From an uncultured Desulfocapsaceae bacterium (GTDB lineage Bacteria > Desulfobacterota > Desulfobulbia > Desulfobulbales > Desulfocapsaceae), in the NCBI GenBank assembly GCA_964583415.1, contig CAZOWJ010000002.1:35365-99364 (forward strand): a stretch of DNA of 64,000 nt, in the 5' to 3' direction. The notes under the pieces were generated by a model, which made no database searches, was not told where the DNA came from, and saw nothing but the letters and a program-made list of their open reading frames with translations. This document shows, one piece after another, positions 7,977 through 47,384 of the stretch. Every line of letters begins with the position of its first letter. The stretch's first letter is position 1. A program made the translations under genes and the position numbers.

Positions 7977-10388
7977 TTATTGAGGGTTAAGCGGGTTTTC
8001 GAGCTTGTATCGTTCTATTTTCCTGCGTAGTGTGTCCTTTGATATGCCGAGTTCCCGGCAGGTAATCATCTTTTTCCATTTGTTGCGCTCAAGAGAACTG
8101 GCTATCGCCTGCTGTTCAATCTGATCGAGGGTCGCCCCAGCTTCCATAGCAGCGAAGTTGGTATGGTCTCTATGAGAATCGGGCAGAAAAGACTCTGGAA
8201 GATGATCTTCTTGAATAAATCCAGCGCTACAGAGGATGAATCCATATTCTATGATGTTTTCAAGTTCTCTGATGTTCCCCGGAAATGAATGAAGCATAAG
8301 CTTTTTTAATACAGCATCGCTGACACCGACAATGTCTTTTTGCTTTTCAGCCCTGAATTTATCAACAAAGTGATCGATCAGCAGTGGTATGTCTTCCTTG
8401 CGGTCGCGCAGCGGGGGCAGCGTGATATCGACAACCTTGAGACGATAATAGAGATCATCCCTGAATAGACCATCGTCGACAAGTTGTTTCAGATCACGAT
8501 TGGTTGCGGCTATGACCCGGACATCAGCCTTGATCGATTCGTTTGAGCCCAGTGGTTCATAAACCCGTTCTTCAAGTACGCGGAGAAGTTTAACTTGAAG
8601 GGAGTGGGGTATGTCTCCGATTTCGTCAAGAAAAATTGTGCCGCCCTCAGCTGCCGCAAAACGGCCCTCCCGGTCTTTTCTGGCATCGGTGAAAGCTCCT
8701 GACCGGTAGCCGAAGAGTTCGGATTCCAGCAACGTTTCAGGAATTGCGCCACAGTTAACGGAGAGAAAGGGCTGGTCTTTACGAGCGGAGGCGCTGACAA
8801 TTGCATCAGCCATAATTCCTTTTCCTGTACCGCTTTCCCCAAGGATAAGTACGGTGCTGTCACTGGTGGCGATATCGGGGAGGATCTGGAAAAATCGCTG
8901 CATGATATTGCTTTTACTTATGATTTCTTTGAAAGTGTAGCGTTGCATCAGTTGTTTACGCAACGATTCCATGACGGTCAGGTCCCGGAATGTTTCAACC
9001 CCGCCAACGACATTGCCAACCACATCAACCAGCGGTGACGCACTGATACTGATCGGTTTGCTTTTGCCTTCTTTGTCTTCGATCATTATCGAGCGGTTGG
9101 CAACTGGTCTTCCGGTATAAAGGCTTTCTGCGATCGCACAGTTTTTGCCGCAGATTGAAGAGTGGAAAACGTCACTGCAGAAACTGCCGATAGCAGCCTC
9201 CCGCTCCCATCCGGTGATGATTTCAGCAGCCATATTAAAAGAGGTAATTTGCCAGTTCCGGTCAACGGTAAACACACCATCGGCGATTGAATCGAGAATC
9301 AATTTGTTCTGCAGTGGCGCTGTATTGTCCCTGAAGGTCTGTACACAGCCGATGGCCCGTTTTTTGTCATCAAGCATTGGAGTGATCGAAACGACAATCG
9401 GGATATTGAAGCCATCCTTATCGGTTACAAAACCTTCCTGATCGATAATGTTGCACGGTTCTCCCGGGTCTGATGCGGTAATCGGGCAAGCAGATACCCC
9501 ATCAGCTGCGAAGAACAGTTCATCGCATGATCGACTGACAACATCATCTTCGAGCCAGCCTGTTATCCGTTCTGCACCTGCATTAAAAGATGTGATAATG
9601 CCCTTGCCATCAAAAGTGACGACCCCGTCGGCAACGGCATTTATTATGATATCACTCCTCACTGATTCACTGATGTCGCGAAAGGTCTCAACACCGCCAA
9701 TTACACGGTTTTCACTGTCAATAAGCGGTGCAGCACTGACGCTGACCGGAAAGGGCAGGCCGTTTTTTCGATAAATATATACATCACGGTCATGATAAAC
9801 ATTGGTGTTGTTCATAATACATGATGAGATTGCACATGATGACAGGCAGATATTTGATTGGAAAATCGTCTTACATGGCTTGCCGAGAACCTCCTCCTGT
9901 TTCCAGCCTGTCATTTTCTCGGCTGCTGAGTTAAAGGAGGTGATTTTCATCTCACCATCGACAGTAAATACTCCTTCCGCAATGGAGTCAAGTGCCAGTG
10001 CCCGCGGGGTTACGACCTCTGAGCGGTCAACCAGGCCGATATAAAATCCAAGGATATTTGCATCTGAATCAGGCAGGACGACAATACGGACTTTCAGGTT
10101 GTCTATTGACTGCTGGCGTGAACCGGCAAGGAAAAACTGCTCCGTTTTTATTGATTCAAAAGGTTTTCTCAGTCTTTCTGTCAAAGGGGCAAAACGGCTG
10201 TCTGCTTCTATCAGCGTTACCAGATGTTTTCCCAGAATATCCTCTTTACGGTGGCCAAGTGTTTGCGCTGCCCTGTTATTACAGGAATTTATTATACAGG
10301 ATCGATCGATGGTGATAAAACCGCTGTCAGGTTCGTGCAACCGTTTGTTGGGGACTGCCATGATGAACTCCACGTAGTGATAACCCAT
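7977..10388 (-). CDS. Sigma-54-dependent transcriptional activator with four N-terminal PAS domains
   Basis: AAA+ core GESGTGKG, a GAFTDA loop variant, DEIGDI, and a C-terminal Fis-type HTH (ITCRELGISKDTLRRKIERY). Three near-repeat PAS units each carry ITSFN.AAE..TGW. Confidence 0.9.
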   Translation of the reverse strand: MGYHYVEFIMAVPNKRLHEPDSGFITIDRSCIINSCNNRAAQTLGHRKEDILGKHLVTLIEADSRFAPLTERLRKPFESIKTEQFFLAGSRQQSIDNLKVRIVVLPDSDANILGFYIGLVDRSEVVTPRALALDSIAEGVFTVDGEMKITSFNSAAEKMTGWKQEEVLGKPCKTIFQSNICLSSCAISSCIMNNTNVYHDRDVYIYRKNGLPFPVSVSAAPLIDSENRVIGGVETFRDISESVRSDIIINAVADGVVTFDGKGIITSFNAGAERITGWLEDDVVSRSCDELFFAADGVSACPITASDPGEPCNIIDQEGFVTDKDGFNIPIVVSITPMLDDKKRAIGCVQTFRDNTAPLQNKLILDSIADGVFTVDRNWQITSFNMAAEIITGWEREAAIGSFCSDVFHSSICGKNCAIAESLYTGRPVANRSIMIEDKEGKSKPISISASPLVDVVGNVVGGVETFRDLTVMESLRKQLMQRYTFKEIISKSNIMQRFFQILPDIATSDSTVLILGESGTGKGIMADAIVSASARKDQPFLSVNCGAIPETLLESELFGYRSGAFTDARKDREGRFAAAEGGTIFLDEIGDIPHSLQVKLLRVLEERVYEPLGSNESIKADVRVIAATNRDLKQLVDDGLFRDDLYYRLKVVDITLPPLRDRKEDIPLLIDHFVDKFRAEKQKDIVGVSDAVLKKLMLHSFPGNIRELENIIEYGFILCSAGFIQEDHLPESFLPDSHRDHTNFAAMEAGATLDQIEQQAIASSLERNKWKKMITCRELGISKDTLRRKIERYKLENPLNPQ

Positions 10389-10636: not shown

Positions 10637-11767
10637 ATGTCTTCAAGCGCAGAAAAACAGCCTCAGAACGATATATTGACCACCGATGGGCACTCCGTTC
10701 ATGCCGTTGCTGGAATTGAACTCTTTCACTCAATTCAGGATCCCGTCCTTATAGTAACACCTCCCGGAATAATTATTGATGCCAACAAGGCAACCTTGCT
10801 GGCAGCCGGCAAAACTCGTGATGAGATCATAGGCAAGGGGATCTGCGAAATCATACACGGCGGCCGCTGGCCTCATATCAAGTGTCCTCTGGAGGAATTT
10901 CTGCTTACCTGCACCGGCAGAAACGAAGATACTCGCCTTCCCGGCCTCGGCGGAGAATATCATCTGACCATCACTCCGCTGGTAGATCTGGATGAGTCTG
11001 TTCAGTCAATTCTACTGCAGGCGCGTAGGCTTACCAGTGAGGAGTCAAGTAAAGTTGAGACTATTCGAACGGCCCAACTGGCTGCCATCGGCGAACTCGC
11101 AGCAGGTGTCGCCCACGAGGTCAATAACCCCATCAATGGTATCATTAATTATGCCCAGTTGTTGCTCGATGACGCTGAGAAGGGCACGCTCCAGGCCGAA
11201 TTGCTTGGAAGAATAGTCCAGGAGGGCGATCGGATTGCAACGATCATATACAGTCTGCTCTCCTTTGCCCGTGAAAATGAAAATGAGCTCAAGGAAATCG
11301 AATTTAAAGAGGTGATTCATTCCTGTATCAATCTGGTGGATCACCAGTTAAAAAGTGAAGGAATTCAACTGGAACTGCATCTTTCAGAGCGCAGCTGCAT
11401 AATTGTCGGTAACTATATGCAGCTCCAGCAGGTTATTCTCAATACCATCAACAACAGCAGGTATGCACTCAATGAACGCTACCCTGAGAGTTCAGCCGAC
11501 AAACGGCTTCGGATAAGTTGTGAACCTGTCCAGGCAGAAGAGGGAAGTGAGATAAAGGTCATTATTAGGGATTTTGGTACTGGGATTCCCCAGGGAATCC
11601 TCGACAAGCTCTTTGAGCCGTTCTTTACCAGTAAACCTGCCGGCCAGGGGACCGGCCTTGGCTTGAGCATCAGCTACGGCATCATTAAGAATCACGGTGG
11701 CAGGCTGTCAGTTGATTCGATTCTTAATAAATATACCGATATGATAATTACCATACCGGAGGCTTAA
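10637..11767 (+). CDS. Soluble PAS-domain sensor histidine kinase
   Basis: There is no TM segment. It has a PAS domain, the H-box [25 protein letters not shown], an N-box [10 protein letters not shown], and G-boxes RDFGTGIP and GTGLGLS. Confidence 0.85.
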
Positions 11768-11782
11768 AAAATTACCGAACCT

Positions 11783-13549
11783 ATGCTCGATCGGAATATC
11801 CTGATAGTAGATGATGAGGAGAGTTTACGGTTGACGTTTGAAATGTTTCTCAAGCGAGAGGGATATAGCAACGTACAGACCGCAGCCACCGTTGAAGAGG
11901 CCCTTACGGCAATAAGCAAAGGCCGGTTTGATCTCATCATCAGTGATATCGTTCTGGGCGGAGAAAAAGGCACCGAGCTTCTGCGTCATATACGACAAAC
12001 AGGTATTTCCTGTCCCGTTGTCATGGTTACCGGTTTTCCAAACCTGGAGACCGCTTCTGAAGCTGTTCGGCTTGGCGCTTTTGACTACATTTCCAAACCG
12101 GTAAATAAGGAGAAGCTTCTGAAGCTGGTTCGGCAAGCGCTGGCCTTCTGGGAGCTCGAGCTTGAAAAACGCTCACTTATTATACAGAACGAGAAGTATC
12201 AGCATTACCTGGAGGCAATTTTCAGCTCGGTTGAAGATGCCATTATAGCAGTTGATAACCGCTGTAACATTCTCAAGCTCAACCGGACAGCAGAGTCGCT
12301 GCTTGATGAATTTCGTGATGACAGTGACAGCGATGGAAAGGTTTTACCGGGCGAGATAGGCAGCGCCTGTATGAAAGACGCACTGCTGGTCATCGAGAAG
12401 GGCAGTATTGTCAGGGAACATATCATTGAATGTGTCAATGTGGACGGCGCCTCAAAAATGTTTTCGATTAATGCGGCACCACTTGATATAGATGATGAAA
12501 TTTCTAACGGTGCGGTAATTGTTGTGCGTGACGTAACGAGGGCAGAGGAACAGAATGTGCCGTCACAGAGGGAACAATTCCATGGCTTTGTCGGCGCCAG
12601 CCAGGTTATGCAGTCTATCTATCGACTCATTGAAAATGTTGGTAAGGTTGAAACTGCCGTTTTGATAGCCGGCGAATCGGGAACAGGCAAGGAACTGGCC
12701 GCAGAGGCGCTGCACGCAGAAAGTTCTCGAAGTACCATGCCCCTTGTAAAGGTTGACTGTGGAGCGTTACCTGAGGAATTGCTGGAAAGTGAGCTTTTCG
12801 GTCACCGTAAGGGTGCTTTTACCGGCGCTGATCGTGACAGACCTGGCAGATTGCTGCAGGCTGACAAGGGAACACTGTTACTTGACGAAATTGGTGATAT
12901 AACCCATCGTATGCAATTACGGCTTCTTCGCTTTCTGCAGGAGATGACCTTTACCCCCGTTGGAATGGATACTCCGGTCAGTGTTGATGTCCGTGTGATT
13001 GCTGCAACCAATGTCAACCTACGGGAAAAAGTTCGAGAGGGTGGCTTCCGCGAAGATCTTTATTATCGACTCAAAGTTGTTGAAATCGTTCTCCCCCCCC
13101 TACGTGATAGAAAAAAGTGCCTGCCAATACTCATCAACCATTTTCTTACTTTTTTCTCACAAAAACATGCCAGGCATGTTCATTCGATCTCTGATCGGGC
13201 CATGGATGCAATGGTGTCTTACTCTTGGCCCGGTAACGTCAGAGAACTAAAACATATAATGGAGCGGGGCGTTGTGCTCTGCCTTGGCAATAACCTGTTG
13301 CTGGAACATCTCCCGGATGAAATACTTGAATATAATAGTCCACCAGACCCTGCGCTAGAACGATCTGGGAATGTACCGCAATCACACCATCTCAGCCACG
13401 ATCAGATATATTCAGCACAGCAGAACGAACTTATTGAAGCTCTCAAACAGGCTGGCGGCAACAAGTCCAGGGCTGCTCAAATTCTCGATATAGACCGGTC
13501 GACACTGTATCGCCGGCTTCGTCGATTTAAGATCACAACCGGACCGTAG
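11783..13549 (+). CDS. NtrC-family sigma-54-dependent response regulator (REC-PAS-AAA+-HTH)
   Basis: REC domain (ILIVDDE..DLIISD..), GESGTGKE, an intact GAFTGA, and a C-terminal HTH (AAQILDIDRSTLYRRLRRF). It starts 16 nt after the kinase gene. Confidence 0.9.
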   Translation: MLDRNILIVDDEESLRLTFEMFLKREGYSNVQTAATVEEALTAISKGRFDLIISDIVLGGEKGTELLRHIRQTGISCPVVMVTGFPNLETASEAVRLGAFDYISKPVNKEKLLKLVRQALAFWELELEKRSLIIQNEKYQHYLEAIFSSVEDAIIAVDNRCNILKLNRTAESLLDEFRDDSDSDGKVLPGEIGSACMKDALLVIEKGSIVREHIIECVNVDGASKMFSINAAPLDIDDEISNGAVIVVRDVTRAEEQNVPSQREQFHGFVGASQVMQSIYRLIENVGKVETAVLIAGESGTGKELAAEALHAESSRSTMPLVKVDCGALPEELLESELFGHRKGAFTGADRDRPGRLLQADKGTLLLDEIGDITHRMQLRLLRFLQEMTFTPVGMDTPVSVDVRVIAATNVNLREKVREGGFREDLYYRLKVVEIVLPPLRDRKKCLPILINHFLTFFSQKHARHVHSISDRAMDAMVSYSWPGNVRELKHIMERGVVLCLGNNLLLEHLPDEILEYNSPPDPALERSGNVPQSHHLSHDQIYSAQQNELIEALKQAGGNKSRAAQILDIDRSTLYRRLRRFKITTGP

Positions 13550-13566: not shown

Positions 13567-13610
13567 GACCAGGTGTCGCGGTGGAACAGTTTCGCGACAC
13601 CTGGTCTTTT
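13567..13610 (+). terminator. Rho-independent terminator after the response regulator
   Basis: GACCAGGTGTCGCG / CGCGACACCTGGTC forms a 14-bp perfect stem, followed by TTTT. Confidence 0.7.
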
Positions 13611-13741: not shown

Positions 13742-13757
13742 TGGCATGCGTGATGCA
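13742..13757 (+). promoter_or_regulatory. Candidate sigma-54 (-24/-12) promoter
   Basis: TGGCAT-GCGTG-ATGCA compared with consensus TGGCAC-N5-TTGCW. The GG and GC dinucleotides have the canonical spacing. It lies ~55 nt upstream of ATG 13811, directly downstream of a sigma-54 activator gene. Confidence 0.5.
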
Positions 13758-14298: not shown

Positions 14299-14343
14299 TA
14301 AAAAAGGACCACGAGCTCATCTGCTCAGTGGTCCTTTTTTTTT
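14299..14343 (+). terminator. Strong rho-independent terminator after the small-protein pair
   Basis: AAAAAAGGACCAC-loop-GTGGTCC followed by T9. Confidence 0.8.
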
Positions 14344-14459
14344 GTAATTATCCTGAATTATGTAATAAACGTTTACTTTAAAATATGATTAAATAGGTGT
14401 ATAACATGGTTGTTGGGAGAGAACGAAGACAGAGCTGATTTCGGCTGCAAGGGATACGT

Positions 14460-16303: not shown

Positions 16304-17227
16304 ATGCTGAACTCTACTAAATCCATACTTTACATAAGCTTTTTTATTGTTGGAATATCCCTGTTTCTTGTCATTATCCTGGGAGCCCGGCAGTTCCAGA
16401 TGAACAGGGAGTATTCAGAGATTACCGTGCTGAGCGAAAGAACCCTCTTTGCCTTTGCAACATTACGGGAACAGATTACCGAATCGTTGATCAGCAGCGA
16501 CTATCAGTTGCTCAGAGGGGTTATCCCCGAGATCGAAGATTTAAACAATACCATTACCAGATTTTTCGATAGCGACATTATCCCCGGTGAATATAAACTC
16601 GCCCTGACTGACAGGATTGATCTTGCAGGACTTGTAATTGATTTAAGAAAAGTTGGATCGGAACAGGATGATCCAGAATCAGGTCTCAGGATTCAGCAGG
16701 ATCTGCGGGTAATTGGAGACAATCTCTTTAAAATCGACAGGGTGATCACCGGTCAGATCAGGAATTCTGTTGTCAGTTTTCAGCTCGGTATAATCGGTGC
16801 AATGGGACTGCTCATCAGTTGCACCAGTTTTATCCTTATCCTGTTATACCGAAAGACAATCGGTCCAATGTTTGATTTGTCCCGACAACTGAGCAGCAAT
16901 CCTGAGGAACATGGTCAGCTTGTCTGCAGCACTGAGGTGGCAACCGAGATCGTCGAGATAACAGAATCCATTAACCGGATAATTGCAGAACAACCATTGT
17001 CAAATGGAACTGATGGGTCCGGCAGTTATGAAGATCAGGAAACGATCTCAAGGACGATTAACGAGACCACAAACAATCTTAACGGCATAATCAATTATGC
17101 CCAGTTGCTATTGGAATCTGAATCACAGCTCTCTGAAGAACAGCAACGAATGCTCGAGAAGATCATTAGCAGCGGCGAGCGAATCGCGGATGGGTGGCAG
17201 AGGATAAGCCAACGGTTCAGCGGTTAA
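16304..17227 (+). CDS. Membrane sensor-like protein (TM-periplasmic domain-TM-linker) ending in a His-less DHp-like domain, with no ATPase domain
   Basis: It has TM helices near residues 10-28 and 160-182. The C-terminus [27 protein letters not shown]...MLEKIISSGERIADGW parallels the H-box helix pair of the kinase at 10637-11767, with Asn at the His position. The protein ends about 50 aa later. Confidence 0.7.
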   Translation: MLNSTKSILYISFFIVGISLFLVIILGARQFQMNREYSEITVLSERTLFAFATLREQITESLISSDYQLLRGVIPEIEDLNNTITRFFDSDIIPGEYKLALTDRIDLAGLVIDLRKVGSEQDDPESGLRIQQDLRVIGDNLFKIDRVITGQIRNSVVSFQLGIIGAMGLLISCTSFILILLYRKTIGPMFDLSRQLSSNPEEHGQLVCSTEVATEIVEITESINRIIAEQPLSNGTDGSGSYEDQETISRTINETTNNLNGIINYAQLLLESESQLSEEQQRMLEKIISSGERIADGWQRISQRFSG

Positions 17228-17403
17228 GCTCAGCTGTCTAATCTTTTTTCGTTCGTGCCTCAGTTACCATTAACCAAAACGTCCGGTAATATAATCTTCA
17301 GTGAGTTTATGGCCTGGGTGACATTATAACCAGCAACGGTGTCATCCACGTAATTGATGCTGTGATGCTTCCGTAATACATTACTTAGATTTAAAGTCTT
17401 TAA

Positions 17404-17440
17404 ACAAACGGGCCTTGATTTTAGAATCAGGCCCGTTTGT
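17404..17440. terminator. 12-bp perfect hairpin, a possible terminator (strand uncertain)
   Basis: ACAAACGGGCCT-13 nt-AGGCCCGTTTGT. Only weak T-runs flank it on either strand. Confidence 0.35.
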
Positions 17441-46761: not shown

Positions 46762-47384
46762 TTGGAATAGAGTTTTTAGCTGCTGTTTCTACTGAATTCT
46801 GATACTATAAATCTAGATAATTTTTTTACGTGTTAGCGGGTTTTCTGATAATCAGTAGAAGGATATAACCGAAAGGCCTCGTTGGTGCTCAGATATCTGG
46901 GCAAATGCCGGGGCGGCAGGTTTTTCCCTGCGCTGTTGGTGATCTGTAGTGTTGTTGAGCCAACTCTCCTAAAAAGGGCGCTACCACTGTCCTCGAATGG
47001 GAAATTGAACAATTTCCCAGATGTTGATATGCGGCACCCACCTATTTCGATAGGTTTAACTTGTCCTATAGACACGGCAGGGTGGGGAAAATCTTTTTGT
47101 ACACAATGTTCGGGCGGATGCTGGACATTGTTTAATATATGGGCAGTTCATGAACGCTCTGGGGTTCGTTACTGCCTCGTGTTGCAAAACCAAGAAACAT
47201 TACAAAAGCGGGAAAAACGCTTAGCAGACGGTAAAGAAACCTGACAGGTTGTTTGCCAGTTGAAAATGAGCGATGCATGTTCCTAACCGGGCTCTGCTAT
47301 CGTTTCAGCGACTGGATAAAGATAAATGGTGATTAAAAGCACCGATGGTTTTGCTGTCGGTGTGCTGTATTTGAACAGTAAGCA

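Follow-up and report, generated by a model that had tools for sequence, protein, structure and literature searches.

A histidine kinase is commonly regarded as one protein with two functions, and its kinase and phosphatase activities have been separated mostly by engineered point mutants. In the NtrB-like kinase CrdS, N375, located four residues after the phospho-acceptor His (His+4), is the sole residue needed exclusively for phosphatase activity, E372 is needed for kinase activity only, and the P376A exchange lowers phosphatase activity (PMC3510030). CrdS H371A retains most of the phosphatase activity, with a CrdA~P half-life of 2.6 min compared with 0.7 min for the wild type and 53.5 min without kinase, and the His itself boosts this activity in CrdS and EnvZ (PMC3510030). 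NRII-H139N was described as phosphatase-only (bioRxiv 10.1101/122606), and according to a passage of PMC7005713 that cites the work, an HK853 construct without the catalytic and ATP-binding (CA) domain was reported to be phosphatase-active. Among natural kinase homologs, RocA requires CovS for its activity and reportedly increases the proportion of CovR that is phosphorylated (PMC7028121); the HOS domain of RpBphP1 signals through protein-protein binding (PMC6899989). Here we analyzed a 64,000-nucleotide stretch of DNA (the window) from an uncultured Desulfocapsaceae bacterium (GCA_964583415.1, contig CAZOWJ010000002.1, positions 35,365–99,364 of the forward strand) and, within it, a gene for a membrane sensor that ends in a hairpin resembling the DHp domain (for dimerization and histidine phosphotransfer) of histidine kinases. 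This gene is the last of a conserved module, which consists, in order, of genes for a soluble PAS kinase, an NtrC-type regulator, tandem small membrane proteins, an FtsH paralog, and the sensor (Table 1).

According to the first-pass annotation of the window, the protein has the input layout of a sensor kinase and ends after a DHp-like hairpin that carries Asn in place of the phospho-acceptor His, with no catalytic domain. This description was borne out. The first transmembrane segment (TM1), periplasmic domain, second transmembrane segment (TM2), HAMP-like segment, linker, and hairpin were all predicted, and every string that had been quoted was found in the sequence. BLASTP, hhalign, and hidden Markov model (HMM) comparisons agreed in placing Asn253 of the sensor on His160 of the module kinase. 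The BLASTP alignment (47% identity over 43 amino acids, E 5e-8) started with Asn253 opposite His160. In the hhalign comparison of the sensor-DHp and kinase-DHp profiles (probability 98.4%, E 6e-15), INETTNNLNGIINY was paired with a 14-residue stretch of the kinase, and the sensor-DHp HMM kept the same register on all module kinase orthologs with 34–53 bits. The Pfam scan of the sensor gave a partial HisKA match only (26.0 bits; gathering score 26.9), in which residues 259–295 were aligned with profile positions 17–51 of 66; since these positions alone align, the H-box of HisKA lies outside the match. HisKA (PF00512) was matched in 15 of the 18 family members scanned at E ≤ 1, and no HATPase_c match was found in the sensor or in these members. 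Because the His is replaced by Asn and the ATPase domain is absent, the hairpin cannot be phosphorylated.

The hairpin had also been called a copy of the DHp domain of the neighboring kinase. Membership of the two in one subfamily is upheld by the profile comparison, but descent from that particular gene is not. Within 80 loci, most other kinases scored below 10 bits with the sensor-DHp HMM, the exception being a paralog of ca. 700 amino acids (31–37 bits). However, unrelated database kinases with the AHE[IV]NNP[IL]NGIIN[FY]AQLL flavor (for example, P0090, 857 amino acids, and P0080) scored 47–54 bits, compared with 44 bits for the window kinase, and the identity between sensor and kinase DHp domains was 0.436 for cognate and 0.430 for non-cognate pairs. 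Judged from these comparisons, the hairpin is from the same HisKA subfamily as the neighboring kinase and cannot be termed a copy of its gene, because unrelated kinases score alike and cognate and non-cognate identities are equal. The functional link between sensor and kinase rests on synteny and shared specificity residues. An exhaustive phmmer search with the 68-residue hairpin gave hardly any matches other than sensor family members, and a profile search for the closest kinase via a word index returned short fragments only. Against PDB sequences, the hairpin profile gave only marginal matches to calmodulin EF-hands (E 0.03–0.7), in which sensor residues 245–285 (window ca. 17036–17158, INEVDADGNGTIDFPQFL) were aligned with EF-hand 2 of calmodulin. 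We rejected this likeness as chance: judged by eye from the alignment, EF-loop positions 1, 3, and 12 face Thr, mostly Leu, and Gln, not Asp, Asp, and Glu, and the AlphaFold2 (AF2) model has a continuous helix there.

This design is widespread. In a survey with one genome per species, relatives of the sensor were present in at least 138 Desulfobulbales species genomes, including those of Desulfopila aestuarii, Desulforhopalus singaporensis, Desulfosediminicola flagellatus, Desulfogranum mediterraneum, Desulfocapsa, and Desulfobulbus sp. Tol-SR. A protein search gave 52 full-length relatives of 297–311 amino acids with identities down to 33%, all from Desulfocapsaceae or Desulfobulbaceae, and all database relatives are unnamed ("hypothetical") proteins. 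We assembled 83 orthologous open reading frames (ORFs) from 80 genomes plus the window. Asn253 is present in 83/83 orthologs, and the C-terminus lies 6–14 residues past the ERIA motif of helix 2 in all of them (ca. 6 residues in most). Conservation within the sensor peaks in DHp helix 1, where the column mean is 0.75. This near-invariance, together with the invariant Asn253, indicates purifying selection. Within 2 kb downstream of the sensor gene, the only similarity to a CA domain came from separate kinase genes, which are present in three loci.

In close relatives (L001–L003, L008, L009, L019, L040, and L052), the sensor gene is followed directly by convergent pstB, which is full-length (292–321 amino acids) in most of them and 196 amino acids in L001. 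In the window, the last 16 codons of pstB (...LTEDYITGRFG; 17273–17320, − strand) are all that remains, which marks the breakpoint of a rearrangement or deletion shortly past the sensor gene in this genome. The 700-bp gap up to the downstream CBS gene contains no recognizable gene and gave no Rfam match. At 17404–17440 (+ strand), ca. 180 nt past the sensor stop codon, there is a hairpin of high stability (−23.6 kcal/mol, z −5.3), which may be a terminator left from the rearranged region. The breakpoint and the HisKA score slightly under the gathering threshold are what could be cited for a decaying truncated kinase or pseudogene, or for an ATPase domain lost through an assembly or sequencing error, and assembly truncation had been a worry of the first-pass annotation. 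This explanation is extremely improbable, and we rejected it: length and stop position are shared by 83 orthologs down to ca. 32% identity, selection has kept Asn253 and helix 1, no locus has a CA remnant downstream, and the 3′ end of the sensor gene is the same as in relatives whose pstB is intact. The sensor is a real, selected design and not an artifact.

The residue pattern of the hairpin was then compared with positions of known function. Of the features needed only by a kinase, the His and the CA domain are gone, the Pro at His+5 has given way to Leu, Arg, Gln, or others in the sensor orthologs, and the Glu at His+1 is relaxed in part, being kept in 71 of the 83 orthologs. The Asn at His+4 (Asn257) is present in 83/83. 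As regulator-specificity positions we used His+7, +8, +11, +12, +14, and +15, which correspond to the mutagenized PhoQ sites and the CrdS specificity residues (PMC3892784). The sensor residues at these positions are NGNYQL in 80 of 81 orthologs, the module-kinase homologs read [TN]GN[FYL]Q[LI] in 62/62, and 22 of the 23 other kinases of the same loci differ at the six positions. The invariant outward-facing polar residues of the sensor are N260, N264, Y265, and Q267. Two features of a phosphatase-competent HisKA domain are thus found in the sensor hairpin, namely the Asn at His+4 and specificity residues matching those of the kinase of the cognate regulator. This pattern fits a regulator-directed role at least as well as heterodimerization with the kinase.

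An AF2 model of the sensor, built as a single chain on 18 family members, was all-helical with a mean predicted local distance difference test (pLDDT) score of 71.5. Helices 5–64, 67–89, 95–104, 107–119, and the start of 124–198 form the predicted periplasmic bundle; the last of these runs on through TM2 into HAMP AS1, and helix 210–228 corresponds to HAMP AS2. The pLDDT falls below 50 at residues 230–240 in the linker, and the stop codon follows directly after the hairpin helices (240–271 and 278–306). In a Foldseek search against PDB, the top matches were the sensor-TM-HAMP fragments of NarQ (5JEF and 5IJI; probability 0.99–1.0, TMt 0.55–0.57, E only 0.04–0.1), and the sensor domains of QseE and Adeh_2942 ranked next. 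Columns conserved to at least 95% include F49, E56, D106, R135, D145, and R146 in the periplasmic domain and P188 and E215 in the HAMP-like segment, although Pfam HAMP was found in just 2 of the 18 family members (best E 6e-4). The mean column conservation of TM2 (0.74) is on a par with that of DHp helix 1, and both are the highest within the sensor. The linker block 229–245 has a column conservation of 0.19, whereas the spacing from N224 to N253 is 27 residues in 63 of the 83 orthologs.

Gene context was counted in loci with enough upstream flank (at least 9 kb for the kinase and regulator). The kinase gene was found within 9 kb upstream of the sensor in 55/61 loci and the regulator gene, over the same distance, in 58/61; for the small membrane-protein genes, the count within 5.5 kb upstream was 70/70. 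The co-occurrence that the earlier annotation had proposed to check was thus strongly positive. The gene for the FtsH paralog is immediately upstream of the sensor gene in almost all loci with sufficient flank, and the gap from the ftsH stop codon to the sensor start codon is mostly −13 to +17 nt (62 loci), so the two are probably co-translated. The Walker A (GPPGTGKT) and zinc (HEAGH) motifs of the FtsH paralog are intact. The small membrane proteins form a family of 205 copies across 74 loci, arranged in tandem as 1 to 6 or more per locus; IGxWA and SGGP are its conserved motifs, neither Pfam nor NCBIfam has a matching family, and every source name is "hypothetical." In 46 of the 74 loci, a small gene is preceded, at a distance of up to 250 nt, by a TGGCAY-N5-xTGCA motif. 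No sigma54 motif was found upstream of ftsH in 62 loci, and direct feedback control of the ftsH–sensor operon is therefore not supported.

Table 1 Features of the membrane sensor gene and of its module in the window.
Feature	Position	Strand	Basis
Kinase-dead membrane sensor gene	16304..17227	+	ORF, 307 aa; 52 full-length homologs, 83 orthologous ORFs
TM1 (~aa 8–28)	16325..16387	+	Hydropathy peak centered on 13–24; inside AF2 helix 5–64
Periplasmic helical, four-helix-bundle-like sensor domain (~aa 29–159, ~130 aa)	16388..16780	+	AF2 helices, Foldseek
TM2 (~aa 160–182), unusually conserved	16781..16849	+	Hydropathy peak 164–174
HAMP-like segment (~aa 183–228)	16850..16987	+	AF2 helices to 198 and 210–228
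Linker, low-confidence (aa 229–239)	16988..17020	+	Length conserved, sequence not
Minimal HisKA-type DHp hairpin; helix 1 aa 240–271, loop, helix 2 aa 278–306	17021..17221	+	Pfam, BLASTP, HMM, AF2, hhalign
Asn253 codon AAC, phospho-acceptor His position	17060..17062	+	Aligned to kinase His160
Asn257 codon AAC, His+4	17072..17074	+	Asn in 83/83; phosphatase role from CrdS N375 (PMC3510030)
Soluble PAS-HisKA-HATPase_c histidine kinase	10637..11767	+	Pfam; His160 codon 11114–11116
NtrC-type response regulator, REC-PAS-sigma54 AAA+-HTH_8	11783..13549	+	Pfam
Sigma54-type promoter TGGCATGCGTGATGCA, upstream of small genes	13742..13757	+	Motif search
Small single-pass membrane protein copy 1, ~70 aa	13811..14023	+	ORF, family alignment
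Small single-pass membrane protein copy 2, 72 aa	14053..14271	+	ORF, family alignment
Strong intrinsic terminator hairpin after small genes	14300..14344	+	−25.3 kcal/mol, z −7.5, then T-run
FtsH paralog, stop codon 17 nt before sensor start codon	14460..16286	+	TIGR01241 702.9 bits; Pfam Peptidase_M41 + AAA

Because kinase features are lost, the phosphatase Asn is kept, and the specificity positions match those of the module kinase, we favor a role of the sensor that is directed at the module regulator, and we put the probability of this reading at roughly 0.45. The hairpin would form a homodimeric four-helix bundle, which would dock the receiver domain of the regulator through the same specificity residues as the kinase. 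The sensor would lower regulator phosphorylation, probably as a phosphatase-only DHp acting via the invariant Asn at His+4 or, at the minimum, as a decoy that competes for docking. A signal from the periplasm or membrane would set the activity of the sensor; this signal may be the load of small membrane proteins or the activity of FtsH. In effect, the cytoplasmic PAS kinase would be opposed by an input from the membrane. What we infer here comprises homodimerization and docking to the regulator, the phosphatase chemistry, whether regulation is negative, and what the signal is. Synteny with the sensor is tighter for the small genes and the regulator than for the kinase, and its conservation lends indirect support to a physical contact with the kinase or its regulator. 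Several points weigh against this role. The Pro at His+5, whose exchange in CrdS P376A cuts phosphatase activity, is lost in the sensor, as is the His that enhances this activity in CrdS and EnvZ. As the module kinase retains its own Asn at His+4, there is no obvious call for another phosphatase. The linker from HAMP to DHp is non-conserved in sequence and modeled with low confidence, so that a route for a periplasmic signal to the hairpin is not evident. The tight coupling to ftsH may point to the protease as the true partner. Additionally, the positions common to the sensor and kinase DHp domains are invariant in both families, and covariation therefore cannot tell regulator docking from heterodimerization with the kinase.

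Such heterodimerization, which the first-pass annotation had proposed, would either poison autophosphorylation of the soluble PAS kinase, as RetS does with GacS, or lend it a membrane or periplasmic input as a split sensor. It would account for the common HisKA subfamily, for the 34–53 bits of the module kinase in every locus compared with less than 10 bits for most other kinases there, and for the presence of the kinase gene upstream in most loci; the module kinase is soluble and has no membrane input according to Pfam, and there are precedents in RetS, which breaks the GacS dimer through its DHp domain (PMC8498467), and in ChrS/HrrS (PMC9491836). Nevertheless, we consider this explanation unlikely. 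A canonical bundle interface leaves N260, N264, Y265, Q267, and the Asn at His+4 unexplained. The loop segment of the sensor hairpin has 14–16 residues compared with 13 in the kinase, and these 1–3 additional residues are a mild argument against a symmetric heterodimer; helix 2 also stops ca. 6 residues past ERIA in most orthologs. In four loci (L064, L069, L074, and L077), the regulator, small genes, and sensor are adjacent with no kinase in the available upstream flank and no FtsH between, and the upstream genes inspected in L069 and L077 are unrelated. Neither cognate-specific tracking of the DHp sequences nor a better match of the hairpin to the module kinase than to unrelated kinases was seen. 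The remaining explanation is that the sensor mainly partners the co-translated FtsH paralog as a membrane regulator or substrate adaptor, for which LapB of E. coli FtsH is the comparison case. The hairpin might then serve for dimerization only or capture the regulator or kinase for proteolysis, and the TM and periplasmic part might sense the small membrane proteins. The close gene spacing, the position of ftsH directly upstream, the Peptidase_M41 and AAA domains with intact motifs, and the unusually conserved TM2, which suggests an intramembrane protein contact, all agree with a protease partner. However, the sensor gene comes directly after the small genes without ftsH between in five loci (the four above and L076), and pure dimerization leaves the kept specificity residues and the Asn at His+4 unexplained, making an FtsH partnership improbable as the main function.

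Variant loci and further relatives were found. In L023 (34–5142), a Wadjet defense system (MksE/JetB, JetC, and JetD, confirmed by Pfam) lies immediately upstream of the small genes, at the usual site of the kinase and regulator, and similar ORFs in L032 (176–6624) are probably the same Wadjet insertion. In L055 and L079, two complete blocks of small genes, FtsH, and sensor flank one kinase–regulator pair, which shows a module duplication. A paralogous pair, consisting of the ca. 700-residue kinase and a sigma54 regulator (52% identity), lies downstream of the module, ca. +5.7 to +8.7 kb from the sensor, in L037, L065, and L071. This kinase has the same DHp flavor, with the quartet NGNY in the single copy examined (L071), and the pair is a potential source of cross-talk with the dead hairpin. 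Judged by eye from one sequence, the kinases appear soluble, with PAS-like and possibly GAF-like regions. They were rejected as a full-length ancestor of the sensor, to which they gave only weak, non-significant matches (best E 0.17). Distant relatives (P0054, P0055, and L081 1458–2930) have the same sensor-TM-HAMP front with a GAF domain inserted before the dead hairpin; P0054 and P0055 have Leu at the His position and keep Glu at +1 and Asn at +4. These were likewise rejected as an ancestor, being without a CA domain and in a different gene context.

Other elements of the window were noted beside the module. Just past the regulator stop codon and ca. 150 bp upstream of the sigma54 promoter lies a perfect inverted repeat of 14 bp, GACCAGGTGTCGCG ... 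CGCGACACCTGGTC, with TTTT after it (13567–13606, + strand); it could be the terminator of the kinase–regulator operon or an activator binding site. Divergent from the kinase gene is that of another sigma54 activator (7977–10388, − strand), which has four PAS domains and lacks a receiver domain; it occurs at the same position in ca. 20 related loci with 57–93% identity and may belong to the same circuit. A 6S RNA (Rfam RF00013, 68.9 bits) was found at 46922–47092 (+ strand).

A broader and more tentative proposal is that the module is one two-component system split naturally, in which the soluble PAS kinase would phosphorylate the NtrC-type regulator and a separate membrane-anchored, signal-regulated, phosphatase-only HisKA protein would reset it. 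Envelope status would thereby be coupled to sigma54 transcription, possibly via the load of sigma54-induced small membrane proteins that are handled by a dedicated FtsH. If this is true, the sensors would be the first family of standalone DHp phosphatases to be found in nature, and evolution would be able to split kinase and phosphatase onto separate polypeptides with separate inputs. They would also show what a minimal phosphatase or docking module looks like, and that functional regulators can occur among proteins filed as "incomplete kinases" or "hypothetical." The analysis defines an uncharacterized five-gene envelope-related circuit in sulfur-cycling Desulfobulbales, comprising the kinase, sigma54 activator, tandem small membrane proteins, FtsH paralog, and sensor.

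No published description of this sensor family was found in the literature searched, and the family was set apart from RetS, RocA, and DivL by their descriptions. DivL has Tyr at the His position, keeps its CA and PAS domains, controls CckA, and is probably unrelated to the sensor in sequence and context. The likeness to DivL of Caulobacter lies in the natural replacement of the His and in a DHp region that reads or binds a response regulator instead of phosphorylating it (PMC4211667; PMC9430884). RetS of P. aeruginosa is likewise membrane-anchored with a periplasmic sensor and controls the pathway of a bona fide kinase, GacS, through its DHp domain rather than by regulator phosphorylation (PMC8498467). 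Unlike the sensor, RetS keeps His, CA, and receiver domains and acts on GacS (PMC8498467), whereas the residue pattern of the sensor points at the regulator. RocA of group A Streptococcus is also a membrane-embedded kinase homolog that modulates a two-component system as an accessory protein without autophosphorylation; it differs in having six predicted TM segments, a dispensable His246, and a degenerate CA domain (PMC7028121), compared with the predicted two-TM NarQ-like layout, absent CA domain, and invariant Asn of the sensor.

NRII (NtrB) H139N carries the same His-to-Asn substitution as the sensor (bioRxiv 10.1101/122606), and the kinase-minus alleles of CrdS keep the Asn at His+4 (PMC3510030); both NRII and CrdS are NtrB-type kinases whose partners are NtrC-type regulators. 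However, these variants are full-length laboratory mutants with a CA domain, whereas the sensor is a natural protein without the CA domain or the Pro at His+5 and is encoded separately, as a membrane protein, beside an intact kinase. The incomplete histidine kinases (iHKs) of P2CS, which lack HATPase_c (bioRxiv 10.64898/2026.02.27.708494), and the two-helix output (HOS) domain of RpBphP1 (PMC6899989) share with it a natural combination of a sensor with a DHp-like output of two helices in the absence of an ATPase domain. The iHKs are a bookkeeping class and not a mechanism (bioRxiv 10.64898/2026.02.27.708494), the repressor-binding RpBphP1 is a soluble phytochrome (PMC6899989), and neither has the five-gene module found around the sensor. 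The sensor family differs from all of the compared systems in combining a natural absence of the CA domain, an invariant Asn at the His position, kept specificity residues and phosphatase Asn, and the five-gene module.

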